Virus record (IMG/VR): IMGVR_UViG_2563366978_000002
Coordinates: 1-42,648 of that record
Origin: a virus
Lineage: Duplodnaviria > Heunggongvirae > Uroviricota > Caudoviricetes
Strand: one strand, 5' to 3'
Length of the DNA stretch: 42,648 bases
Shown: piece by piece, positions 1,419-40,438 of the stretch
Numbering within the stretch: the stretch's first letter is position 1
How the letters are laid out: each line of letters opens with the position of its first letter
The notes under the pieces: model-generated
The model's database searches: none
Told to the model about the DNA's origin: nothing
The model's input: the letters and a program-made list of their open reading frames with translations, nothing else
Position numbers and translations under genes: made by a program

Positions 1419-2489
1419 TTATTTGATTTCAATTTTGTCCCACTCCCTGCCTCTGTCATCACGATACTGTGATGCCATGGTGTCCGACTTATGCCCGAGA
1501 AGATGTTGAGCAAACTTATCGCTTATCTGCTTCTCATAGAGTCTTGCAGACAAACTGCGCAACTCGTGAAAGGTAGGCGGATCCCCTTCGAAGGAAAGAC
1601 CTGATGCTTTTCGTGCGCGCATAAAATACCTTGATACTGTGCCGGATGAAAGCGGTTCACGACGAGTAGATGCAATTATGGTTTCTCCGCCAAGAATCTC
1701 TTTGCATTTATCAAGTGTTTCCTTCATTGATATCCCAAGAGCATCAACATGCAATGTTGTTGGGATGGCAATTTTTACGCCGGTTTTGCTTTGCTCGACA
1801 TAAAGATAGCCATCTACGATATCAGACCACTTCATTTCGCATAAATCCCCAACACGCTGCCCGGTAACAACAGCCAGTTCCATTGCAAGTCTAAGCCAAC
1901 ATGGTGATGATTCTGCTGCTTGATAAATTTTCAGGTATTCGTCAGCCGTAAGTCTTGATCTCCTTACCTCTGATTTTGCTGCGCGAGTGGCAGCGACCGG
2001 GTTTATTGTTATATGGCCTTCAGCTATTGCCTCTCGGAATGCATCGCTCAGTGTTGATCTGATTAACTTGGCTGACGCCGCCTTGCCCTCGTCTATGTAT
2101 CCATTGAGCATTGCCGCAATTTCTTTTGTGGTGATGTCTTCAAGTGGAGCATCAGGCAGACCCCTCCTTATTGCTTTAATTTTGCTCATGTAATTTATGA
2201 GTGTCTTCTGCTTGATTCCTCTGCTGGCGAGGATTTTTTCGTAGCGATCAAGCCATGAATGTAACGTAACAGAATTATCACTGTTGATTCTCGCTGTCAG
2301 AGGCTTGTGTTTGTGTCCTGAAAATAACTCAATGTTGGCCTGTATAGCTTCAGTGATTGCTATTCGCCTGTCTCGGCCTAATCCAAACTCTTTACCCGTC
2401 CTTGGGTCCCTGTAGCAGTAATATCCATTGTTTCTTATATAAAGGTTAGGGGGTAAATCCCGGCGCTCATGACTTCGCCTTCTTCCCAT
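1419..2489 (-). CDS. int: Tyrosine site-specific integrase, lambda Int type
   Basis: 356-aa ORF MGRRRSHERRDLPPNLYIRNNGYYCYRDPRTGKEFGLGRDRR... matches lambda Int as recalled; sits immediately inside attL. Confidence 0.95.
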   Translation of the reverse strand: MGRRRSHERRDLPPNLYIRNNGYYCYRDPRTGKEFGLGRDRRIAITEAIQANIELFSGHKHKPLTARINSDNSVTLHSWLDRYEKILASRGIKQKTLINYMSKIKAIRRGLPDAPLEDITTKEIAAMLNGYIDEGKAASAKLIRSTLSDAFREAIAEGHITINPVAATRAAKSEVRRSRLTADEYLKIYQAAESSPCWLRLAMELAVVTGQRVGDLCEMKWSDIVDGYLYVEQSKTGVKIAIPTTLHVDALGISMKETLDKCKEILGGETIIASTRREPLSSGTVSRYFMRARKASGLSFEGDPPTFHELRSLSARLYEKQISDKFAQHLLGHKSDTMASQYRDDRGREWDKIEIK

Positions 2490-2685
2490 TTCTGATCCTC
2501 TTCAAAAGGCTACCTGTTACTGGTCGATTTAAGTCAACCTTTACCGCTGATTCGTGGAACAGATACTCTCTTCCATCCTTAACCGGAGGAGGGAATATCC
2601 TGCACTCGCGTACCCATCGACGAACTGTTTCAAGGCTTCTTGGACGTCGCTGGCGTGCGTTCCACTCCTGAAGTGTCAAGTACAT
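2467..2685 (-). CDS. xis: Excisionase, lambda Xis type
   Basis: 72-aa ORF MYLTLQEWNARQRRPRSLETVRRWVRECRIFPPPVKDGREYLFHESAVKVDLNRP... matches lambda Xis as recalled; overlaps the int start as in lambda. Confidence 0.9.
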   Translation of the reverse strand: MYLTLQEWNARQRRPRSLETVRRWVRECRIFPPPVKDGREYLFHESAVKVDLNRPVTGSLLKRIRNGKKAKS

Positions 2686-2732: not shown

Positions 2733-2892
2733 CTTGGTGTTCTTTCAGTTCTTCAATTCGAATATTGGTTACGTCTGCATGTGCTATCTGCGCCCATAGC
2801 ATCCAGTGGTCATAGCAGTCGTTGATGTTCTCTGCTTCGATAACTCTGTTGAATGGCTCTCCATTCCATTCTCCTGTGACTCGGAAGTGCAT
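2725..2892 (-). CDS. Hypothetical small protein (55 aa)
   Basis: ATG at 2892 preceded by GGAGATGA Shine-Dalgarno-like sequence; translation MHFRVTGEWNGEPFNRVIEAENINDCYDHW...; stop lies in the terminator hairpin; below the ORF-track size cutoff. Confidence 0.3.
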   Translation of the reverse strand: MHFRVTGEWNGEPFNRVIEAENINDCYDHWMLWAQIAHADVTNIRIEELKEHQAA

Positions 2893-2964
2893 TTATCATC
2901 TCCATAAAACAAAACTCGCCGTAGCGAGTTCAGATAAAAGAAATCCCCGCGAATGCGAGGATTG

Positions 2965-3249
2965 TTATTCATTGCCGATATTTACCTTTATCGCGTAAAC
3001 CTTTACCGGTTTATCGCCGAAGTGCGGATGTGTGATTGTCTTGATTTCATATCCGTCATACGGGACGTCAATTCTACGGCTGGAATCGTCGCGCTTCGGA
3101 TATCCCTTTGTGATAATCAGGCGGTCATACTCCAGGAACATAATTCGCTTATTCCAGTAGTCATTACACAGGCGATACTCTTCCGTTTTCTCTCCGCGAA
3201 TCATGGCATCGAAGTATTCACCTTTGACGGCAAGTTGCAGGTTAGCCAC
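2965..3249 (-). CDS. Hypothetical protein (94 aa)
   Basis: GTG start at 3249 preceded by AGGAGG with 7-nt spacing, directly after the stop of the upstream gene; the longer 107-aa ORF in the track overlaps that gene. Confidence 0.45.
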   Translation of the reverse strand: MANLQLAVKGEYFDAMIRGEKTEEYRLCNDYWNKRIMFLEYDRLIITKGYPKRDDSSRRIDVPYDGYEIKTITHPHFGDKPVKVYAIKVNIGNE

Positions 3250-17066: not shown

Positions 17067-17251
17067 ACGCCACAATTCAAACGATACCAGATCTTCTTAT
17101 CCAGACACGAGGCAATCAGACTGAAGTGGCAAGGATGCTTTCCTGCGCAAGAGGAACAGTGCTCAAGTACAACCGAGACAGCAAAGGCGAGCGTCACGTA
17201 ATAGTTAACGGCGTCCTGATGGTCAAACAGGGCAAGAGGGGAAGACGATGA
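17063..17251 (+). CDS. ninH: NinH-like protein
   Basis: 62-aa ORF ...TIPDLLIQTRGNQTEVARMLSCARGTVLKYNRDSKGERHVIVNGVLMV... resembles lambda NinH (...TIPDMLVEAYGNQTEVARRLKCSRGTVRKY...) as recalled. Confidence 0.7.
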   Translation: MNATIQTIPDLLIQTRGNQTEVARMLSCARGTVLKYNRDSKGERHVIVNGVLMVKQGKRGRR

Positions 17252-17766
17252 GCATAAGAGAACTAAACCTCACCAAAGAACAGCACGATTGGCTGAATGG
17301 CTGGCTTGAACTGTGGGGCGCATGGGTTTATTCAGGCCGCCTGGAAAAGCGCATGAGCAGCGTAATAGCGAAGTTCATGGAGAGCGTAGAGCCGGGAAGA
17401 GTTATGACAAGGCCAATGTGTAATGATGATGATGGAATGTTGATTTCTCAGGTCGTCGATTCCGTCATGTACATTGACAAGAAAGCCTTTGGCATCCTCC
17501 TCAGCTACTACGCTCATGGTTCATCTAAGCGAGCAATTGCATCCTACTATCACGCGACTGCAAAGCCACGCAAGATGTGTGGACGTGGTGGCGAGGGATG
17601 GAGAAAACCTTCACTGGCAACCTGTAGAAACGAAATTGACGACATCCTGAAAGCGTCATTATTTGTTTTATACCAGCCAATGCAAAATGCTTTCAAAATG
17701 CGTAAACGTGTTGAGAAAGTTAAGCATGTTGCTGTTAAAAGCCTTGACATGCAATTATCCATTTAG
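17248..17766 (+). CDS. Q: Late-gene antiterminator Q (non-lambda Q family)
   Basis: 172-aa ORF at the end of the nin region, immediately upstream of a strong promoter-like sequence and the lysis cassette. Confidence 0.6.
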   Translation: MSIRELNLTKEQHDWLNGWLELWGAWVYSGRLEKRMSSVIAKFMESVEPGRVMTRPMCNDDDGMLISQVVDSVMYIDKKAFGILLSYYAHGSSKRAIASYYHATAKPRKMCGRGGEGWRKPSLATCRNEIDDILKASLFVLYQPMQNAFKMRKRVEKVKHVAVKSLDMQLSI

Positions 17767-17829: not shown

Positions 17830-17904
17830 GGGTCAGTCGTATAAAGGTCATTACGGAAGGCTGTTAACCTTCTTATCGTGGTTCGAGCCCACGCTGTCCC
17901 GCCA
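17830..17904 (+). tRNA. tRNA-like gene, anticodon GUU (Asn) by manual fold; two stem mismatches
   Basis: Cloverleaf by eye: acceptor GGGTCAG/CTGTCCC (one T-T mismatch), D-arm with GG, anticodon stem GAAGG/CCTTC with loop CTGTTAA, T-arm CGTGG-TTCGAGC-CCACG, discriminator G, encoded CCA. Confidence 0.5.
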
Positions 17905-17909
17905 AACAT

Positions 17910-17985
17910 GCTGGTTTAGCTCCAATGGTAGAGCAGTCGCCTTGTAAGCGAATGGGTAGCGGTTCAAGTCCGTTAACCAGCACCA
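17910..17985 (+). tRNA. tRNA, anticodon UGU (Thr) by manual fold
   Basis: Acceptor GCTGGTT/AACCAGC, U8A9, D-arm GCTC-CAATGGTA-GAGC, anticodon loop CTTGTAA, T-arm AGCGG-TTCAAGT-CCGTT, discriminator A, encoded CCA. Confidence 0.7.
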
Positions 17986-18227: not shown

Positions 18228-18551
18228 ATGAAGATGCCAGAAAAACATGACCTGTTAGCCGCCATTCTCGCGGCAAAGGAACAAGGCATCGGGGCAATCC
18301 TTGCGTTTGCAATGGCGTACCTTCGCGGCAGATATAATGGCGGTGCGTTTACAAAAACAGTAATCGACGCAACGATGTGCGCCATTATCGCCTGGTTCAT
18401 TCGTGACCTTCTCGACTTCGCCGGACTAAGTAGCAATCTCGCTTATATAACGAGCGTGTTCATCGGCTACATCGGTACTGACTCGATTGGTTCGCTTATC
18501 AAACGCTTCGCTGCTAAAAAAGCCGGAGTAGAAGATGGTGGAAATCAATAA
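18228..18551 (+). CDS. S: Holin S (lambda S, class I holin, dual-start MKM)
   Basis: 107-aa [65 protein letters not shown]..., essentially lambda S as recalled. Confidence 0.95.
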
Positions 18552-19011
18552 TCAACGTAAGGCGTTCCTCGATATGCTGGCGTGGTCAGAGGGAACTGAT
18601 AACGGACGACAGAAAACCAGAAATCATGGTTATGACGTCATTGTTGGCGGAGAGCTATTCACTGATTACTCAGATCACCCTCGCAAACTTGTCACGCTAA
18701 ACCCAAAACTCAAATCAACAGCAGCCGGACGTTACCAGCTTCTTTCCCGTTGGTGGGATGCCTATCGTAAGCAGCTTGGCCTGAAAGACTTCTCTCCGAA
18801 AAGCCAGGACGCTGTGGCATTGCAGCAGATTAAAGAGCGTGGCGCTTTACCGATGATTGATCGCGGTGATATTCGTCAGGCTATCGACCGTTGCAGCAAT
18901 ATCTGGGCTTCACTGCCGGGCGCTGGTTATGGTCAGTTCGAGCATAAGGCTGACAGCCTGATTGCAAAATTCAAAGAAGCAGGCGGAACGGTCAGAGAGA
19001 TTGAGGTATGA
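18535..19011 (+). CDS. R: Endolysin R (lambda-type lytic transglycosylase)
   Basis: 158-aa [55 protein letters not shown]..., essentially lambda R as recalled. Confidence 0.95.
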
Positions 19012-19445
19012 GCAGAGTAACCGCGATTATCTCCGCTCTGGTTATCTGCATCATCGTCTGCCTGTCGTGGGCTGTTAATCATTACCGTGATAACGCCATC
19101 GCCTACAAAGACCAGCGCGATAAAGCCACATCCATCATCGCTGATATGCAGAAGCGTCAACGTGATGTAGCAGAACTCGATGCCAGATATACAAAGGAGC
19201 TTGCTGATGCTAACGCGACTATCGAAAGTCTCCGTGCTGATGTTTCTGCTGGTCGTAAGCGCCTGCAAGTCGCCGCCACCTGTGCAAAGTCAACGACCAG
19301 AGCCAGCGGCATGGGCGATGGAGAAAGCCCAAGACTTACAGCAGATGCTGAACTCAATTATTACCGTCTCCGAAGTGGAATCGACAGGATAACCGCGCAG
19401 GTTAACTACCTGCAGGAGTACATCAGGACGCAATGCCTTCGATGA
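19008..19445 (+). CDS. Rz: Spanin, inner-membrane subunit Rz
   Basis: 145-aa ORF with N-terminal TM helix and coiled-coil periplasmic domain; follows R as in lambda. Confidence 0.85.
19207..19392 (+). CDS. Rz1: Spanin, outer-membrane lipoprotein subunit Rz1 (embedded in Rz in the +1 frame)
   Basis: Embedded [30 protein letters not shown]... with lipobox (LVVSAC) and Pro-rich mature region. Confidence 0.7.
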
Positions 19446-31088: not shown

Positions 31089-32363
31089 ATGGCTACTTGG
31101 CAACAAGGAATCAACTCAGGCGGCTTTCTTGCTGGTATCGGTGGGCAAAACTCAAATGCGCCAAAGGCAAGTGATGTAAGTGAGGCGTTGGCCTATATTC
31201 GCCAGAACAACGAAATGGAGCGCTCAGGTCGCAATAACATCGGCCTTCAGGCGTTGCAGGGGCTTGGTAGTGTCGCTCAAACATATCAAGCCGCAAAGCA
31301 ACAGGAAGCGGATGCTGCATTCCAAAAAGAATATGCGGCAGCCATCCAGTCAGGTGATCGACAGCAGGTGCGAGATTTGATGACCAAATATCCTGGTCAA
31401 TTAGAGAAGATTCAGTCTGGCATGAAGTGGGCAGACGAAGACCAGCGTGATGAAATTGGCAATCTAGCGGCAGGCGGTCAAATTGCCTCCATGATGGGTG
31501 GTGATGCATTTAGCAAGTGGATTGGAAACAATGCAACCAGATTGTCTAATCAGGGGGTAGACCCACAACAACTCCTCAGTATGTATCAAAAAGACCCACA
31601 AGCAACATCACAACTTATCGGACAATATGGTCAGTTTGCATTAGGCCATGAAAAGTATTGGGATTTGCAGGACAAGATGGTTGGTCGCCAGCAGGAGCAG
31701 CAAAGAATTAACGAAACAATCCGTAATAATGACATGACAAATGCCAGAGGGTGGGCAAGCAACAATATTGCGCAACAAAATGTCAATCTTCGTCGAATGG
31801 AATTAGAGGACAAGAAATACGACAGACTCATCGCAAATGAAACTAATGCCTTAAAACTTGCTGAATTGCAGGACAAGAGATTGCAGAATCAGCAAGCTAT
31901 GGAGCAGGCAAAGCGAGATAAGGCTGATGCGTACAACTCTGGAATGGATAATCTTTCCAGAACGATAGAGACGGCTACAAAAGTTCTTAATAGCCCGGGT
32001 TTCACGGGATATTTCGGAACAAACCTAAACCCACTATCGAGTAGATTCATTCCAGGAACGGAGGCTGCTGATACAGAAACTCTGGTTGACACACTGAAAT
32101 CTCAGGGATTCTTATCTGGCATTCAGCAGATGAAAGGGATGGGGGCTTTAAGTAATGCCGAGGGGCAAAAGGTAATGGATGCTATTGGTAGTTTGTCCCC
32201 AAATCAGTCTGAAAAATCAGCCAGAGCAGCTATCAAAACAATCATAAAAACCACTGAGATGGCTCAGAAACGTATGCAACAGAAATACGGGAAGGACATA
32301 CAACCGTCTCAACAGCAGCTTTCTGATGATGACCTGATTAATAAATATCTCGGAGGGCAGTAA
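31089..32363 (+). CDS. Ejection (injection) protein, gp20-like
   Basis: 424-aa Gln-rich protein at the position of P22 gene 20. Confidence 0.6.
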
Positions 32364-34483
32364 TGGCCTATAGTCGTGAACAGTTGATGACGGCGTTAAG
32401 GAATGCTGATGCTGCCGGCGATACTGAGGGAGCACGTCGCATTGCTCAGATGCTGTCTTCTGATGATCAATCCACTCAAAACCAATCGCAGCCAGAAGAA
32501 CAATCTCTGGTAGGAAAAGCTACTGACTGGCTCACTGGTGGTCAAAGTGCAGGGCAAATTGCAGAACAGGCTGGTCGTGGTCTGGTAAACATACCATTTG
32601 ACGTATTGCAGGGTGGCGCAAGTCTGATTAATGCAATCAGCCAGGGGCTTGGTGGCCCCAAGGTTTTGGATGATGTCTATCGTCCAGTCGATCGACCGAC
32701 AGACCCTTACGCGCAAGCCGGTGAAACAATTGGTGGGTATCTCCTGCCAATTGGCACAGCGGCAAAAGCTGCTGGAGCGCCAGCAAAGCTCGCAGGAGAC
32801 ATCGGTTCAGCAGGAAACATGATTGCCGGTTCTCTTGCTGATGCTGCAAATCAGGAGGGTGATTTTGCACAAAATGCTGCCATTAACGGTGGTATCAATA
32901 TTGGTGCTCAAGGCGTTCTTTCAGGTGTCGGGCGCGTTATTGCCCCAAGAGTTTCACAGGCTCTTGGTGGTGCAGCACTGAATTCTGCTAATGATGTTTC
33001 GAAAATGGCAAAGTCTGGTACAGGAAGAGAGATTATTGCCAGACAGTCAGCTAACGTGTCAGACGAAATAGCAAAAGCAGCAGATACTGCTGGAATAGAT
33101 ATCAACGCATTAACTCCTGGCATGAGATCAGGTAGTCGTGGTCTTGCTCAGGCGGAGGGGATTCTGGCGTCAAAGCCCGGAATTACACAGGATGCACACA
33201 CCAAAGCATTCAGTGAAATAGAGTCGAAATTTAACTCAGCATTGGATGAGTTTGGGGCTGAAGCAGGAACTGCATCAGAAAAAAGTGCAGCCATAAAACA
33301 GAGGGTTTTGGCAAGCATTGATAAAATGAAAAATTCAGAAAAGGCCGCATGGGATAGCGTCCGCTCCACGATGCCTGACGCAAAGGCCAGAATGTCAAAC
33401 CTGAACGCTACAATTCAGGGTGATATTTTGGCTGGCATGCCGCTAACTCCTGAGATGAAACAATTCGCATCTGCTTATGCTAAAACTGGTAAAAAAGGAA
33501 TCACGTTTGATGCCATGAAGGCATGGCGAAGTAAACTTGCTGACGCAGAGCAGAAGTATATAAGGTCTGGTGAGGCAAATACGGCAAGGCGCATGGCTGA
33601 GCTTCGTGATGCAGCAACGGAAGATATGCGCATAATGGCTCAAAATGGCGGTTTTCTTGATGACTGGCAAAAAGCTAATGACCTGTCAAAGGCAAGATTT
33701 ACAGCACAAGAACAGGCTGAAGCAGCGTTTGGCAGAGACCTTGCAACTGATCAGTTGGTAAATAATGGCTCTAAGGCGTTACAGGGCTCAGCAAAAAGTG
33801 GAACAGGTCAGTTCCATAAAATAATAAGCGCCCTACCTGAGTCGGAACGCGCGCCAGCAATTGCATCAATATTACAAGATGCAATGTCGCAAGGGGTACG
33901 CGGAGGTAAGTCCGAAGAGGCTGGAATTAAGCATATCGCGACTATTCTTACCCCACAAAACGTGAAGGCAATTAGTCGATATTCTCCAGAACTTGGCAGG
34001 ATTACAAGTTCATACGGAGAACTTGCAAGAGCAGCAACAAAGCCACTTCGATATGTTGAACAGACAGGGCGATCTATGCCAGCCATTAGCACTCTTGAGA
34101 ATGGCCTTCATCCAGTTTTAGAGAGCGCATTGTCTGGCGCTTTTAGAACTACTGGCACTATCGCAGGGTTCTCTGGAGGAGGCGTTATTGGAGCAATAGC
34201 GGGTGGCGCTGCAGGTGGAGCAATTGATGCAATGGCAAAAGGAGCGATAGCGAAATTATCCGCAACTAGAAGCGGTCGTTACGCTATTGAAAAGGCTGTT
34301 CAAGAGGCAACAAAGGCAGTTAAGGTTGGGGCAAGTGATGGTGCATTAGCGGCGGCGGAACGCAGATTTATGGCAAATAAGGCCGCCGTAAAAGCAATAC
34401 GCGAGGCACTAGGAAACGAAGAGTTCCAGCGTTTAGCAAGGGCTGGAATTGTGGCATCGCTAAGCGGAATGGCACAGGAGTAA
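32363..34483 (+). CDS. Ejection (injection) / DNA transfer protein, gp16-like
   Basis: 706-aa Ala/Gly-rich protein at the position of P22 gene 16, last gene of the rightward structural operon before the immI region. Confidence 0.6.
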
Positions 34484-34813
34484 TTAGTCATCCATGGATG
34501 GATTGAGCTTATCTCGTGTTGATGTGGCAATTTTCCCAACATTTTTCAACCAAGATTTTAAGAAGGATATGTCGTCCTTAATATCATGAATATCCTCATT
34601 CTTTATACGATCAACCTTATCCTCTAGGCTCTCTATAGAACGCTCAATGCTAGACAGAGAGATTTTTAAGTCTCCTTGATCACGTTCCAGTGAGGATTTG
34701 AGAGCACAATATTCGTTTTCTAGAATTCCTATTTTTTTTGTTAGAGAGTGCATTCGATACTCATACACCAAACCAGAAACGACTAATGCAGCCAACAGAA
34801 ACCATTCAAGCAC
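34484..34813 (-). CDS. Small membrane-anchored coiled-coil protein (moron; candidate exclusion/effector component)
   Basis: 109-aa ORF, GTG start preceded by AAGGGGG; N-terminal hydrophobic helix LEWFLLAALVVSGLVYEY then heptad-like region; AT-rich; 20 nt downstream of the YafO-like gene. Confidence 0.5.
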   Translation of the reverse strand: MLEWFLLAALVVSGLVYEYRMHSLTKKIGILENEYCALKSSLERDQGDLKISLSSIERSIESLEDKVDRIKNEDIHDIKDDISFLKSWLKNVGKIATSTRDKLNPSMDD

Positions 34814-34835: not shown

Positions 34836-35255
34836 TTATTTGTATGAAATCAACGAGTTAAGCTCCCTCTCATTTAGAGATTGGAATCTTTTTTCAGTTA
34901 TATCAATGATGGCTGGCAATAGTTTTTTTACCTTCTCATGACCATCAGGTTTAATGATAGCAATGATCTGGATATGAATTGGATATGTGTTGTGTACCGC
35001 AAATATCAAAAAGTTATCGCTAACTCTACGATGTATTGGCGTTGTTTTTAACCAAGGATCATCTACTCCAGGGATCCTGATGTGCGACTTGTAAATTCCC
35101 GATAAGACGGCGTGATGGTTTCTCTCAAACCCACCAATCTTACCAAGATAAGCTGAAACGGTGCCTCTGTTTTTGTAGTTTGCAAGAGCCTTCGCAAAGT
35201 ATTGTTCTAATGGTCCAGCCGCTGCATCTACAACAATGCTTATGCGGTTTTCCAT
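34836..35255 (-). CDS. YafO-like putative toxin (ribosome-dependent mRNA interferase family) - tentative
   Basis: 139-aa basic protein; ...IHIQIIAIIKPDGHEK... resembles the ...LLIAILKPEPH... region I recall from E. coli YafO; start ATG lies inside the last codons of the upstream gene (translational coupling). Confidence 0.45.
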   Translation of the reverse strand: MENRISIVVDAAAGPLEQYFAKALANYKNRGTVSAYLGKIGGFERNHHAVLSGIYKSHIRIPGVDDPWLKTTPIHRRVSDNFLIFAVHNTYPIHIQIIAIIKPDGHEKVKKLLPAIIDITEKRFQSLNERELNSLISYK

Positions 35256-35839
35256 TTTGGTGCTTCCATGCCAAATCTTTTATGTGAATCTTCAACTGAT
35301 TTCTTGAATGAAGCCAACTCTTCTTCAGTGAACTCTTCAGGTTCAGCATATGATAGTGGTATGTGCTGCATTGCTAGCGTCACAAGCCCCATAGTTAGCC
35401 TTTTGTATTCTATAAAAGTATTTATTGAGTGGTTTTTCATTGTTGTAAGAGTTGACATATGGGGCTTCCACGCATCGCTGTTCTCAGCGATGAAGAAGGT
35501 ATACAACAGTTTCGCGATACCATAATCAAGCTTAGATATTTGATCGTTCAACATATCTACATCGTCATGTTGAATATCAAGTGAGGAAATATCTTCTTCC
35601 GTACCATTACTTAATATGTCAATGAATGTAATGTACTTTTTGCAAACTTCCTCTACAGGTGACATAACGCAGTAGATCTTGCTAAGAGCTTCAGAAGCCT
35701 GTTTTTTAGACAAAGAGCCGCTATGACTGCGATCAAAGTCTGAAATTGAACGCTCGATAGATGTTGATATGTCAGAAAAAACGTTTTCAATTTTTCCTGG
35801 CTCTTGATTCAGGATGGCCATAACGCCTATCTCAATCAC
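35240..35839 (-). CDS. Hypothetical acidic protein, upstream partner of the YafO-like gene (candidate antitoxin/immunity or sensor)
   Basis: 199-aa ORF (alternative ATG at 35821); no TM segments; 16-nt overlap with the downstream gene; 43 nt downstream of the mnt stop on the same strand. Confidence 0.5.
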   Translation of the reverse strand: MIEIGVMAILNQEPGKIENVFSDISTSIERSISDFDRSHSGSLSKKQASEALSKIYCVMSPVEEVCKKYITFIDILSNGTEEDISSLDIQHDDVDMLNDQISKLDYGIAKLLYTFFIAENSDAWKPHMSTLTTMKNHSINTFIEYKRLTMGLVTLAMQHIPLSYAEPEEFTEEELASFKKSVEDSHKRFGMEAPKWKTA

Positions 35840-36152: not shown

Positions 36153-36204
36153 TTGACATGATAGAAGCACTCTACTATATTCTCAATAGGTCCACGGTGG
36201 ACCT
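36153..36204. promoter_or_regulatory. immI control region: pant -35/-10, Arc operator and Mnt operator
   Basis: TTGACA (36153..36158); ATGATAGAAGCACTCTACTAT (36158..36178) matches the P22 arc operator as recalled; palindrome AGGTCCACGGTGGACCT (36188..36204) matches the P22 mnt operator. Confidence 0.8.
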
Positions 36205-36220: not shown

Positions 36221-36379
36221 ATGAAAGGAATGAGCAAAATGCCGCAGTTCAATTTGCGGTGGCCTAAAGAAGTATTGGATTTGGTGCGTAAGGTGGCGGA
36301 AGAGAACGGGCGATCTGTTAACTCTGAGATTTACAAGCGAGTGATGGACAGCCTGAAGAGAGAGGGGATTACGGTATGA
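36221..36379 (+). CDS. arc: Arc repressor (ribbon-helix-helix, P22 immI)
   Basis: 52-aa ORF MKGMSKMPQFNLRWPKEVLDLVRKVAEENGRSVNSEIYKRVMDSLKREGITV, near-identical to P22 Arc as recalled. Confidence 0.9.
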   Translation: MKGMSKMPQFNLRWPKEVLDLVRKVAEENGRSVNSEIYKRVMDSLKREGITV

Positions 36380-36645
36380 AGGTGTCATTGCTTGATCGTT
36401 CTTTACAATTTTTGTCTGGCGCAATCATTGTAGTTTGCTTGCTCGTGATTTTTACATCGTTAATAAATATGTATCAATCAGGGGAACGATTGACAAAGAC
36501 GATAGAGGAAAAAAAATCAGTCTCAAATTACGAAGTATCACATGCACATAACGATTTAGTAGAAAGCCTTGACCGTATTAACAAGAGGCTTGACGAGACA
36601 AATATGCTACTTAAGCAAATTCAAAATGAAGTGGAAAAACGTTGA
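36376..36645 (+). CDS. Small membrane-anchored coiled-coil protein inserted between arc and ant
   Basis: 89-aa ORF with ATGA overlap with the arc stop; N-terminal hydrophobic helix (FLSGAIIVVCLLVIFTSLI) and coiled-coil-like C-terminus; AT-rich. Confidence 0.5.
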   Translation: MKVSLLDRSLQFLSGAIIVVCLLVIFTSLINMYQSGERLTKTIEEKKSVSNYEVSHAHNDLVESLDRINKRLDETNMLLKQIQNEVEKR

Positions 36646-36675
36646 AGCCCCAACTGCGGGAACAGTCAGGGCTTC
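36635..36675 (-). terminator. Minus-strand intrinsic terminator, candidate 3' end of a sar-like antisense RNA
   Basis: Minus-strand hairpin GAAGCCC...GGGCTTC followed by U5 (plus-strand AAAAA at 36635..36639); located just upstream of the ant start on the opposite strand. Confidence 0.4.
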
Positions 36676-36708
36676 GGTATCGTAAAACCACGCATAGGAA
36701 TTAACGAC

Positions 36709-37632
36709 ATGAAAAGTATAGCAACAGCAGTATCTACTATCAATGTACCATTCCACGGCGCAGAGCTTTATGTTGTCAATCACAACGGTGAGCCGTACAC
36801 CCCAATGAAACCTATCGTTGAGGGAATGGGTATGGATTGGGCTTCACAGTTTACAAAGTTAAAACAAAGATTTGCTAAAGGTATTGTGGAAATCGCAATA
36901 CCTTCAGTTGGCGGTGTGCAGACCATGATTTGCCTTGCTTTACGTAAACTGAATGGCTGGTTGCAAACCATCAGCCCTAACAAAGTCCGCCCTGAAATCC
37001 GCGACAAGGTAATCCAGTATCAGGAAGAGTGTGACGATGTGCTATACGAGTACTGGACTAAAGGCCATGTAGTTAACCCACGCAAAGCTAAAAAGGCGTT
37101 GCCGGGTAAAATCACCACTGAACAGCAGGAAGCCATTAAACAACTCGTCATGAGTCGCGGTCAGTCTCTGCCAAAGGAAAAACAGGCTAAGGCGATGATC
37201 ACCATGTGGTCGTCACTGAAATCTCATTTTGGGTGTTCATACAAAGAAATCAGTGAGGAGCAGTTTACCGAAGCTCTGTCACTTGCAGCTCGCGTTCCGC
37301 TTGAAGGCGAGTTAATCGGCAAACAAGAGAAGAAAGCAAACGAGCTTTCTGCAAAAGAAGCAAACAGCCTTGTATGGTTATGGGATTATGCCAACCGCTC
37401 ACAGGCATTATTCCGCGAACTGTATCCGGCGCTAAAACAAATTCAATCGAACTATTCCGGCAGATGCTACGACTACGGTCATGAGTTCTCGTATGTTATC
37501 GGAATGGCGAGAGACGTTTTAATCAATCACACACGAGATGTTGATATCAATGAGCCAGACGGACCAACGAATCTTTCCGCATGGATGAGACTTAAGAATA
37601 AAGAATTACCTCCTTCAGTTCATAACTACTGA
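36709..37632 (+). CDS. ant: Antirepressor Ant
   Basis: 307-aa ORF downstream of arc in the immI operon, size close to P22 Ant (~300 aa); N-terminal domain resembles AntA-type antirepressor domains; followed by a strong terminator. Confidence 0.6.
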
Positions 37633-37651
37633 CAGATAACCAACGCAACGA

Positions 37652-37675
37652 CCCAGCTTCGGCTGGGTTTTTTTA
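37652..37675 (+). terminator. Intrinsic terminator after ant
   Basis: CCCAGC-TTCG-GCTGGG hairpin followed by a T8 run. Confidence 0.7.
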
Positions 37676-37732: not shown

Positions 37733-40438
37733 ATGACAGACATTACAGCCAATGTTGTAGTGAGTATGCCTTCGCAACTCTTCACTATGGCGCGTTCTTT
37801 TAAAGCCGTAGCCAACGGCAAAATTTATATCGGAAAAATTGACACTGACCCGGTAAATCCTGAAAACCAGATTCAGGTTTATGTGGAAAACGAAGACGGT
37901 TCTCAAGTTCCTGTTTCTCAACCAATCATCATTAACGCTGCTGGTTACCCGGTATATAACGGACAGATTGCCAAATTCGTTACCGTGCAAGGCCATTCTA
38001 TGGCTGTTTACGATGCTTATGGCACTCAGCAGTTTTATTTTCCAAATGTATTAAAATACGATCCAGATCAGTTTGGCCCAGACTTCAAAGAGCAGTTATC
38101 TCAATCAGGAGCATACATTAATGATGATTCAAAAGGTGATGCATTAATTGGGGTAAGGCAGCCATTTACCGGGGCTGTAACTATAACTCAGCATGAAAAC
38201 AATGCTCTTTTCTTAAATGTAAAACAATTTGGAGCAATTGGGGATGGGAAATATCATCCATTATCTGAGTGGTTTTCTTCAATTTCTGAAGCAAAATCCT
38301 TATATCCTTTTGTTGACTCATTATCTCAGTCAATAGACTGGGCCGCGTGGCAAGCTGCCCTTAACACAGGAAAGGTTATTTATGGTACTGATAATGCGTA
38401 TGTAATAACGGATACGTTAACACCTGTTTCTGGTGGTGGGATAATTTGTCTTGGTGTGGGCAAATGGGTCTCAGGATATACTGCAACATTTGCTCCTGAT
38501 ATTACCACAGGGACCACATTCCTGATGTACGGGGTAGGAAATAAAAAATATACTGTAGATTGTGTTTCTAATATGGATGTTAGTGGTGGTGTGGTTTCTA
38601 ATCCATCTTCCGAAGACCCGTATACAACAACGGCACCTGCGTCATCATATGATTTATTGGATTTTACTAACGGTGATGCTAATGGGACTACAAGAGCCAC
38701 GCTTAAACCATTCTCTGCCGCAATATTGATGCCTGAGACAGGATGTGTTCGCCTTGAGAACTTTCGTGTTGTTCCATATTTCAATGGGCTGGATGGTTAT
38801 AAAGACATTGCAAATACCGGTCTTGGCGATGAGTGGGATGTAGGTATTTGGTCACGTGCGTCTTTTGGCAATGAATACCGCAATTTGCAGGTGGTTGGAT
38901 ACTGGCGCAAGACGGCACTTTTAAAAACGAACATTCCTGTATCTGGCACGCTGGCCGCTCAGGGCGAGGATGAAAACTATTATCACTGTAGATTCCAGGG
39001 ATTCAAGGGTATTTCGATCCGCGCCCATGATGTATTCCGAATTACAGCGGTAACGTCCAGCACTATCGAAATCCCATGGTCAGCAAGCCACACCTTCGAA
39101 ACGTCCGGGGTTTTAAGATCTGGAGGCAGGAATTTCACTTATTCAGGATTATCCGTATCCGGTGATAAGTTAGTATTTACTGGAGTGTCTAACGCTTCTG
39201 AGGCAACAGTAGGTTCTACTATACGGCGAAATGACATAGATAACTTTGGTATGGCGGGAACGCAATTTTTCGATTGCTACATTACCAGCCTGTATCACCA
39301 CACACATCTGCTTGCCACATCGCAATACCTGTCTCAACCATTCAGCCGACCATCAGAGTGTATGGAGGTTTCAGGGGAACCAGTTCGCGGTGTACAGGTA
39401 CATGCAGGAACCATTCAGGGATGGGATGATGTTCTTATTCATCTACATGACTGTGGAAATATGAACTTTTACAGTACATATTTCGAAAGCCAGCAAGCAT
39501 ATGTAACTATAAATGGTGGTAATGCTATTGGTTATGGAGCACGTATGATAGCTTCCCGGCAATCAACAAGCTCATTACCATATGCAGCAGGGAATACTCG
39601 AGTGCTTAGAATGGTCGGGTGCTCTGAAGGCAATGGCGTTGACTGGGGTCCTGTATTTAACAACTATACAGGAGGAAGATATAATTCTGGAGACGGTGTA
39701 TTTAACCCCCGCGATGCATTTATAGACCATAAATCTCTTCCTGAGCAGTCAGGAGGTGAGTCAAGACTCGTATCACAAAAAGGAAATGCCAGAGTAGTAT
39801 GTGGTGTTGGTAAAACTGTACTGCTTGGACCAACGTCAGGAGATTGTAATTTACAGAGTAATACTGGAAGTTTAAATATTAGAAGTGGGATAAGAGTAAG
39901 AATCGGTCACGCTGATGGAACAGACTGGTGGTTGGCAGATGCTAATAAAATAGCTCCTGTTGATGATAATGTTAAAGCTATTGGACAGCCATCAAACAGA
40001 TGCTCTGTTATTTATGCAGGAACCGGGTCAATCAATACATCAGATGAAACTCTTAAAACAAGATATGATATTCTTAATGCAGAGCGTGATGCCGCTATTG
40101 AAATAAAGTCAGTCATCTATAAATTTAAATTTAATGACTCAATTAATCACAAAGGAATTGAGTCGTCTAGGTATCATTTTGGCGTTGGCGCTCAAACCGT
40201 AGGGGATATTCTTAGAAAGCATGGTTTAAACCCTGAGCAATATGCTTTTTGGTGTTACGATGAATGGCCTGACGTATGGGATGAAGAGGTGATAACTGAA
40301 GAGAGCACAGATCCTGATACAGGTGAGAAAATTTATTCTCAATATAAAACAGGAGATATGATTCTTGTAAAAAAAGCAGGAGGACGCTACGGAATTCGTT
40401 ATGACGAATTGGCTATGTTTATATTAATGGCAATGTAG
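37733..40438 (+). CDS. Tailspike: P22 gp9-like N-terminal head-binding domain, distinct central receptor-binding domain, C-terminal autoproteolytic intramolecular-chaperone-like domain
   Basis: 901-aa ORF; first ~110 aa ([56 protein letters not shown]...VLKYDPDQ) match the P22 tailspike head-binding domain as recalled; last ~132 aa begin with SDETLK, resembling the Ser-Lys cleavage motif of chaperone domains. Confidence 0.85.

Follow-up and report, generated by a model that had tools for sequence, protein, structure and literature searches.

What a small additional gene is doing between the repressor gene arc and the antirepressor gene ant of a P22-type immI operon, and whether it is peculiar to a single genome, are the questions raised by the virus record IMGVR_UViG_2563366978_000002 of the IMG/VR database. 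The window analyzed here is the whole of this stretch, 42,648 nucleotides (nt) in length, and corresponds to a P22-like E. coli phage or prophage whose closest named relative is CUS-3. The gene in question, an open reading frame (ORF) of 89 amino acids (aa) hereafter named ORF89, lies in an arc-ant interval of 329 nt, to be compared with 68 nt in P22, where the interval consists of the antisense RNA sar. An original prediction, made from the sequence alone, had noticed this extra gene relative to P22 and had proposed that the arc-ant interval be compared with that of other P22-like genomes. This comparison established that insertions recur at this place, where at least eight different small genes can be found. 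On the sequences compared, it shows the arc/sar junction to be a recurrent and precisely bounded cassette slot, of which ORF89 is one rare occupant. The fixed cassette and its alternative cargos are a more interesting result than either ORF89 or sar.

The immI operon and its arc/sar junction

The locus belongs to the P22 immI type, with homologues of mnt, arc and ant arranged in the P22 order together with Pant/Pmnt and the Arc and Mnt operators (Table 1). As in P22, it is located between the ejection-protein gene 16 and the tailspike gene, and the predicted sar promoter lies inside ant. The Pant region is identical to that of P22, as are the two sequences that we take to be the Arc and Mnt operators of that phage, the latter being a near-palindrome (1 mismatch versus its own reverse complement). 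The difference resides at the end of arc. In P22 nothing is present between arc and sar, and the arc stop codon (TAA) precedes the TGA of the sar stem by 6 nt, whereas 261 extra bases encode ORF89 in the window. The last four arc codons differ as well (…REGITV in the window versus …EGRIGA in P22), which creates an ATGA overlap where the arc stop TGA (36377-36379) shares bases with the ORF89 ATG (36376-36378). This coupling, already announced by the original prediction, is read directly from the sequence; the comparison of the arc-sar junction with P22 was made by eye and confirmed by a table of junctions.

The slot was surveyed in at least 119 IMG/VR stretches matching the exact sar terminator pattern, 109 of which had enough upstream sequence to be classified. 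The sample is biased by its dependence on an exact pattern and by redundant prophages, and the percentages are indicative only. Among the matches listed, no cargo is present in 57 of the 109 loci, where the arc stop lies 0-9 nt from the sar-stem TGA; a 12-codon deletion remnant is found in 4 loci, and exactly one small gene lies between arc and sar in the other 48 (44%), from eight unrelated families. The cargos comprise a zinc ribbon of 67 or 63 aa with a weak link to the ClpX finger via PHROG 5259 (at least 18 loci), a 57-aa ORF with a GTG start and a GTGA overlap with arc (at least 11), a 73-aa ORF also present in Salmonella phage Emek (at least 7), ORF89 itself (at least 5), a 74-aa zinc ribbon with a weak ClpX-finger resemblance (at least 3), an 80-aa ORF (at least 2) and a 60-aa protein (at least 2, one copy being interrupted by a stop codon). 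In the latter, Pfam recognises a true ClpX C4 zinc finger (43 bits versus a cut-off of 27). Examples of cargo loci, among the IMG/VR stretches that we numbered L024-L142, are L026, L066, L094 and L142. The four remnant loci retain 12 codons of the 57-aa gene, apparently lost between short TTG(G)ATGC repeats. A possible relation of the 73-aa cargo to Icd of phage P1, a protein of equal length, was considered and rejected, the cargo being found by tblastn only in P22-like phages.

Both edges of the slot are defined to the base. On the left, the junction of all cargos reads ...CTGAAGAGAGAGGGG.T...GGT(A/G)TGA, which encodes an Arc C-terminus of the form ...DSLKREG[IV][TM]V, and the ...AGAGAGGGG.T...GGTATGA junction, including the Shine-Dalgarno-like stretch of ORF89, is common to all cargo families. 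The distance to arc is -4 for every cargo (48 loci among the matches listed). On the right, the TGA at the foot of the sar terminator (36643..36645 in the window) is the stop codon of every cargo, and the same TGA stops arc itself in 13 of the loci among the matches listed. The codon preceding it is usually AAA, the complement of the sar U-tract, and nearly all cargos end in K-[S/Q/R/I]. The TGA of ORF89 provides the first bases of the sar stem, and its last codons are complementary to the U-tract.

An instructive case is the prophage of E. coli NU14, whose sar-ant start region is 100% identical to that of the window and which is devoid of ORF89. Its arc-sar gap is occupied by another, unannotated Cys-rich ORF of 67 aa, coupled to arc through ATGA and ending at the TGA of TGAAGCCCC. 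This 67-aa ORF, the commonest occupant of the slot, carries a CxxC...CxxC motif and is located at 2802..3005 of locus L023 (E. coli NU14) and at 2305..2508 of locus L143 (phage CUS-3); neither the three RefSeq records listed nor the CUS-3 genome as published annotates it. The block 36318-36681 alone is common to all ORF89 loci, whatever their arc or ant allele, and the last ~20 arc codons (from ~36318) always travel with ORF89. The association of ORF89 with several arc and ant alleles fits recombination in the conserved flanks, as far as these alignments indicate. Of 5,426 complete E. coli genomes, 893 contain the sar-ant start region, 373 the 67-aa cargo, 93 the 57-aa cargo and 14 ORF89. Among the species-representative genomes of the Genome Taxonomy Database (GTDB), the sar terminator pattern matches one Pectobacterium contig, in which the slot is empty.

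The region between gene 16 and the tailspike gene of P22-like phages is a known hypervariable and horizontally exchanged block, designated the 'ant moron' (Villafane et al. 2008, PMC2629481). ORF89 falls within this block; that work, however, deals with whole-gene variation around immI rather than with an arc/sar cassette position, and reports CUS-3 as apparently devoid of arc. In the CUS-3 genome, a 46-aa arc and the 67-aa zinc-ribbon ORF are both present, unannotated, inside the 'bsq2 boundary sequence', which explains the earlier remark (PMC2629481). Our literature searches found no description of a fixed arc/sar cassette position in immI operons, and nothing relevant on a gene between arc and ant, on the RefSeq protein accession of ORF89 or on ClpX-finger genes in ant operons.

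The sar antisense RNA

A sar-like antisense RNA across the ant translation start had been predicted from a minus-strand hairpin and U-run. The covariance-model comparison goes further, and this hairpin is a true homologue of sar, known and annotated in P22 and epsilon34, as judged from its match to Rfam family RF00262 (80.7 bits versus a gathering score of 43, E 1.8e-16, model positions 1-68 of 68); the match was reproduced in a covariance-model scan of the whole window. The sequence folds into the two expected stem-loops (-29.8 kcal/mol, z = -4.9), and the terminator stem, read from 36675 to 36644, is made of 14 pairs including 7 GC, followed by AACGTTTTTC / AACGUUUUU. A Psar promoter is predicted at the level of consensus matching just upstream of sar. 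The RNA is antisense to the arc-ant interval and spans the ribosome site of ant, and its U-run reaches into ORF89, over the final codons and the stop. The hairpin is not followed by a T-run on the plus strand and should therefore not halt the Pant transcript. The resemblance to the sar of P22 extends to the full-length family match, the two stem-loops, the terminator and a coverage reaching ~1-2 nt before the ant ATG. The two RNAs differ in the sequence of stem-loop I, in the U-run of the terminator, which is better here (UUUUU versus CUUUACG in P22), and in the 3' tail, which overlaps the end of ORF89 in the window and the end of arc in P22.

ORF89 as a gene and as a protein

ORF89 is a genuine protein-coding gene and not a spurious ORF, a conclusion drawn from comparative data: intact copies, an excess of synonymous changes, a diverged homologue in the same slot and a heptad pattern that persists in this homologue. 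It is intact between arc and ant, with the 4-nt overlap preserved, in all 22 copies read, and polymorphisms among eight close alleles are synonymous in 8 cases and non-synonymous in 5. When 1.84 billion representative proteins were searched exhaustively with HMMER, a sole diverged relative emerged, 83 aa in length and 48% identical, which occupies the arc-X-sar-ant slot of another P22-like contig and is likewise coupled through an ATGA overlap; dN/dS between the two is 0.54 (NG86). The GC content of ORF89 (35%) can be compared with that of arc (47%) and ant (45%). The protein corresponds to PHROG 27312, of unknown function, over its entire length (residues 1-89 on profile positions 1-89 of 89, E 6.5e-61), and is found in 2 of 50,697 phage records (EC.P3 and S.Kent 1-2-1) and in 12 IMG/VR contigs, in addition to the 14 E. 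coli genomes mentioned above, where its RefSeq label is 'hypothetical'. E. coli strains APEC O2-211 and MS14385 are among the carriers. ORF89 is best described as a catalogued, uncharacterised ORFan, a new member of the well-known class formed by small accessory membrane proteins of phages.

The N-terminal transmembrane (TM) helix and coiled-coil tail attributed to ORF89 by the original prediction are both supported. The mean Kyte-Doolittle (KD) hydrophobicity over 19 residues reaches 2.79 at residues 12-30, and only 7 of 2000 shuffled sequences equal the heptad periodicity of L/I/V/M found in residues 54-89. An AlphaFold2 model consists of one unbroken helix from residue 3 to residue 88 with a mean predicted local distance difference test (pLDDT) score of 90. 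With a helix of at least 19 hydrophobic residues and heptads beyond chance, the predicted protein falls in the class of bitopic membrane coiled-coil proteins. The first 51 residues, which encompass the TM helix and the juxtamembrane region, are far more conserved in the 48% homologue than the tail, the motifs LSGAIIV in the TM helix and SGERLT.TIE next to the membrane being kept. In the tail of the homologue few residues are identical, though a 3-4 hydrophobic heptad pattern persists (12 of 2000 shuffles). This distribution suggests that the conserved region has a specific partner within the membrane or close to it, and that the variable coiled coil self-associates.

A run of eight A residues (A8) in the gene deserves mention. 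Databases hold 60-aa variants frameshifted at this site, as well as a 69-aa ORF corresponding to the second half (P0005-P0008), and many ORF89 alleles have the run interrupted by a synonymous A>G change. The variants could be due to slippage-prone inactivation or to homopolymer sequencing error. Another database entry, P0004 (Logan assembly, 94 aa), joins 34 unrelated acidic N-terminal residues to residues 30-89 of ORF89 and stems from recombination or from chimeric assembly.

Proposed expression and role

The explanation that we hold to be probable on balance is that ORF89 is an accessory (cargo) gene embedded in a P22-type immI operon. The operon order is Pant, arc, ORF89, the sar target and ant, with the 3' end of arc acting as the left edge of the cassette and supplying both the Shine-Dalgarno sequence and the ATGA, and the sar terminator as the right edge. 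The P22 precedent is that Pant is shut off by Arc and, in the lysogen, repressed by Mnt. ORF89 would be made as a brief pulse from Pant as soon as infection starts, ended by Arc, and would be silent in the lysogen under repression by Mnt; these two expectations are based on the intact P22 Arc/Mnt operators, on the lack of a promoter of its own and on the published biology of P22. Since sar covers the ant ribosome site and only the last codons of ORF89, the protein would probably be made again by read-through of the late operon. Transcription of P22 arc and ant from both Pant and Plate is stated in published P22 work discussed in PMC12111858. If ORF89 is off in lysogens, a role in lysogenic conversion is therefore unlikely.

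The product would be a single-pass inner-membrane protein oligomerising through a C-terminal coiled coil of about four heptads. As to its function, we tentatively propose that it may act during infection as a membrane-level conflict factor between phages or between phage and host, either by blocking the entry of the DNA of a second phage or by neutralising a membrane-acting defence of the host or of a resident prophage. Small inner-membrane proteins made early in infection are exemplified by Imm and Sp of T4. The predicted ORF89 product shares this general nature with them and with SieA of P22, and differs by the absence of homology, by the addition of a coiled coil and, with respect to SieA, by the fact that the latter is prophage-expressed.

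A wider and somewhat more doubtful extension of this proposal would regard the whole arc/sar slot as an acr-aca-like cassette, by analogy. In acr-aca loci a strong early promoter, located inside a structural or late block, drives variable tiny ORFans together with an autorepressor that ends the burst. The burst promoter, the unrelated small ORFans, the self-limiting repressor and the location inside such a block are found in both cases; here, in contrast, the repressor Arc is of the ribbon-helix-helix type and comes first, a single cargo position is present and PADLOC returns no link to defence. The interchangeable cargos, which comprise ORF89, several ClpX-zinc-finger-like proteins and four other ORFan families, would then be effectors of counter-defence or host takeover, delivered in the early burst along with the antirepressor from a slot tied to arc translation, and ORF89 their membrane-anchored member, aimed at a membrane-bound defence or entry pathway.

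A number of observations weigh against an interpretation of ORF89 in terms of conflict at the membrane. Searches of Pfam, NCBIfam and PADLOC with ORF89 gave nothing significant, and no homology to known superinfection-exclusion or defence families in these collections; the best sub-threshold matches, DUF1664 (E 0.0087) and DUF948 (E 0.015), are far below the cut-offs and coiled-coil-like. The exhaustive HMMER search returned four matches, all of them from the family itself; a word-indexed search of 5.8 billion proteins retrieved relatives of at least 84% identity and fragments and nothing else, the GTDB species-representative genomes contain no relative, and a profile search of the PDB recovered designed coiled coils only. 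The positive-inside rule is ambiguous, with 2 K/R residues before the TM helix and 4 after it. Given the 60-aa frameshifted variants, ORF89 would be dispensable in certain hosts. As the remaining cargos, being zinc ribbons, have a cytoplasmic look, the slot alone gives no pointer to the membrane or to exclusion. Finally, the known exclusion proteins of temperate phages are normally expressed from the prophage, unlike the pattern predicted for ORF89.

Alternative explanations

The alternative that survives best, although we regard it as unlikely, is that ORF89 is an early-burst effector of host physiology, for instance a transient inhibitor of cell division comparable to Icd of P1. The immI operon of P1 is organized as c4 antisense RNA, icd and ant, a layout that is reportedly the subject of a 1993 article by Riedel et al. 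To our knowledge, Icd is not a membrane protein, which sets it apart from the predicted ORF89 product. The 73-aa Icd is a small protein of the P1 immI operon that acts on host FtsZ, to which it binds, thereby blocking Z-ring formation (PMC11897509). Like icd, ORF89 is a small ORF immediately upstream of an antirepressor gene in an analogous operon controlled by an antisense RNA; the P1 RNA, however, acts upstream of icd, whereas sar is downstream of ORF89. A conserved TM and juxtamembrane segment would suit a conserved host partner, and the succession of a short tail, a TM helix and a coiled coil mirrors the layout of FtsB and FtsL. No similarity of ORF89 to the Icd, FtsB, FtsL or DivIC families is nevertheless detected at a Pfam E-value of 1 or below, and ORF89 and Icd are unrelated in sequence.

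The strict geometry of the slot might also be explained if ORF89 were a translated spacer acting in cis, the ribosomes brought to the TGA of the sar hairpin tuning ant translation or sar pairing. That every cargo is coupled to arc by 4 nt and that every cargo, and even arc in 13 loci, stops on the same TGA would be natural consequences of such a mechanism, as would the mutually unrelated sequences of the cargos. The 57 loci without any spacer argue otherwise. So does the conservation of ORF89 at the protein level, visible in the TM helix of the 48% homologue, the synonymous excess and the heptad pattern, and one cargo family is the recognisable ClpX zinc finger domain (43 bits). The cis-acting role appears improbable for these reasons.

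The same zinc finger family is the starting point of a third, slightly less probable alternative, namely that the slot tunes the stability of phage regulators and that ORF89 could modulate FtsH/HflKC, an AAA+ protease complex of the membrane, as CIII of lambda does. This analogy is consistent with the ClpX C4 finger of the 60-aa cargo, with the weak similarities of the 67-, 63- and 74-aa cargos to it and with the predicted membrane anchoring of ORF89, a property of FtsH and HflKC. It remains guilt by position, as ORF89 has no similarity to CIII, to HflK/C or to any FtsH partner.

In the original prediction, ORF89 and the 109-aa protein encoded downstream of gene 16 were considered as possibly paralogous morons. 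We consider very unlikely the corresponding reading of the two as independently expressed genes of lysogenic conversion or superinfection exclusion. In its favour, each protein is small and has a charged, helical tail behind a hydrophobic N-terminus, and each gene falls in the hypervariable stretch from gene 16 to the tailspike gene, where P22 keeps sieA. A loose architectural resemblance can thus be retained, although the hydrophobic stretch of the 109-aa protein is weaker (KD 1.48) and its heptads are not significant in one register. The proposed kinship largely collapses upon alignment: BLASTP gives an E-value of 2.7 over 8 residues, the hhalign probability is 20% and the match is limited to coiled-coil sequence, the two proteins belong to different PHROGs and the conserved parts differ, being the C-terminal 45 residues in the 109-aa family and the TM and juxtamembrane region in that of ORF89. 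As for the term moron in its strict sense, no promoter was found between Pant and the ORF89 start, and no plus-strand terminator after ORF89; the promoter-like sites upstream on the plus strand are Pant and a weak site overlapping it, the others being inside ORF89. The gene is therefore left without promoter or terminator of its own, behind intact Arc and Mnt operators.

A lysis accessory function, spanin-like or antiholin-like, is hardly credible, for although an N-terminal TM helix followed by a coiled coil is the i-spanin layout and weak matches to Rz-like PHROGs exist (E 0.048, not significant), the phage already encodes a holin, an endolysin and an Rz spanin in a lysis cassette outside of which ORF89 is located, and no embedded or adjacent lipoprotein partner (lipobox ORF) accompanies ORF89. 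An assignment of ORF89 as the i-spanin was accordingly rejected, the true Rz being encoded in that cassette.

Neighbouring genes and feature coordinates

The coordinates of the features discussed are collected in Table 1. The gene of the 109-aa protein has a GTG start and immediately follows gene 16 on the opposite strand. Two database relatives of this protein, P0032 and P0033, have their N-terminal half swapped for unrelated sequence. The hkcB gene of CUS-3 is annotated at the equivalent position, a match by position alone. The adjacent pair of genes, encoding a YafO-family toxin-like protein of 139 aa and, upstream of it, a 199-aa ORFan, sits where P22 has sieA and is also found in NU14, CUS-3 and MS14385; it may represent a toxin-antitoxin or defence pair. 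At a distance from immI, two tRNA genes are inserted between a Q-like antiterminator gene and the lysis cassette.

Table 1. Positions of the immI features and of other genes mentioned in the text (window coordinates)
Feature	Position	Strand	Evidence or remark
Q-like antiterminator gene	17248..17766		
tRNA-Asn(GTT) and tRNA-Thr(TGT) genes	17830..17985	+	
Lysis cassette (holin, endolysin, Rz spanin)	18228..19445		
Rz gene	19008..19445		
Gene 16, ejection protein	32363..34483		
109-aa protein gene	34484..34813	-	PHROG 5962
139-aa protein gene, YafO-family toxin-like	34836..35255	-	Pfam 1.1e-11; overlaps the 199-aa ORFan by 16 nt
199-aa ORFan	35240..35839	-	PHROG 18235
mnt repressor gene, 82 aa	35882..36130	-	Pfam Arc domain 1.1e-27, Repressor_Mnt 5.5e-15
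Pant promoter, TTGACA-17-TATATT, 11/12	36153..36181	+	Promoter scan; region identical to P22 in alignment
Arc operator, 21 bp, ATGATAGAAGCACTCTACTAT	36158..36178	.	Sole exact match in window, 0 expected by chance; identical to P22
Mnt operator, 17 bp, AGGTCCACGGTGGACCT	36188..36204	.	Exact match; identical to P22
arc repressor gene, 52 aa	36221..36379	+	Pfam Arc 1.7e-27
Shine-Dalgarno-like GAGAGGGG in arc C-terminal codons (KREG)	36360..36367	+	8 nt before ORF89 ATG; read from sequence
ORF89, predicted bitopic membrane protein gene, 89 aa, ATG start	36376..36645	+	PHROG 27312; GC 35%
ORF89 predicted TM helix, ~residues 10-33	36403..36474	+	KD 2.79; homologue alignment
A8 homopolymer in ORF89, codons 45-47	36509..36516	+	Site of frameshifted 60-aa database variants
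ORF89 C-terminal heptad-repeat (coiled-coil) segment, residues 54-89	36535..36642	+	7/2000 shuffles reach observed heptad contrast
sar antisense RNA	36635..36707	-	Rfam match 36640..36707; stem 36644..36675; U-run 36635..36639
ant antirepressor gene, 307 aa, ATG at 36709	36709..37632	+	Pfam P22_AR_N 8.5e-45, P22_AR_C 3.1e-29
Predicted Psar promoter, TTGATA-17-TATACT, extended -10 TG, within first ant codons	36715..36743	-	Promoter scan; read 36743 to 36715
Terminator-like hairpin and T-run after ant, ahead of tailspike gene	37650..37669	+	Terminator scan
Tailspike gene	37733..40438		

Significance

For the annotation of P22-like genomes, the minus-strand hairpin is to be recorded as the known sar and ORF89 as a real gene. 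Although the immI circuit of P22 has entered the textbooks, an extra-gene position that recurs with precise boundaries inside its operon seems to be undescribed. A sharp, self-limiting burst at the outset of infection makes the genes so expressed strong candidates for roles in anti-defence, exclusion or host takeover, and the slot therefore offers a short list of such genes, among which ORF89 is the only predicted membrane protein.

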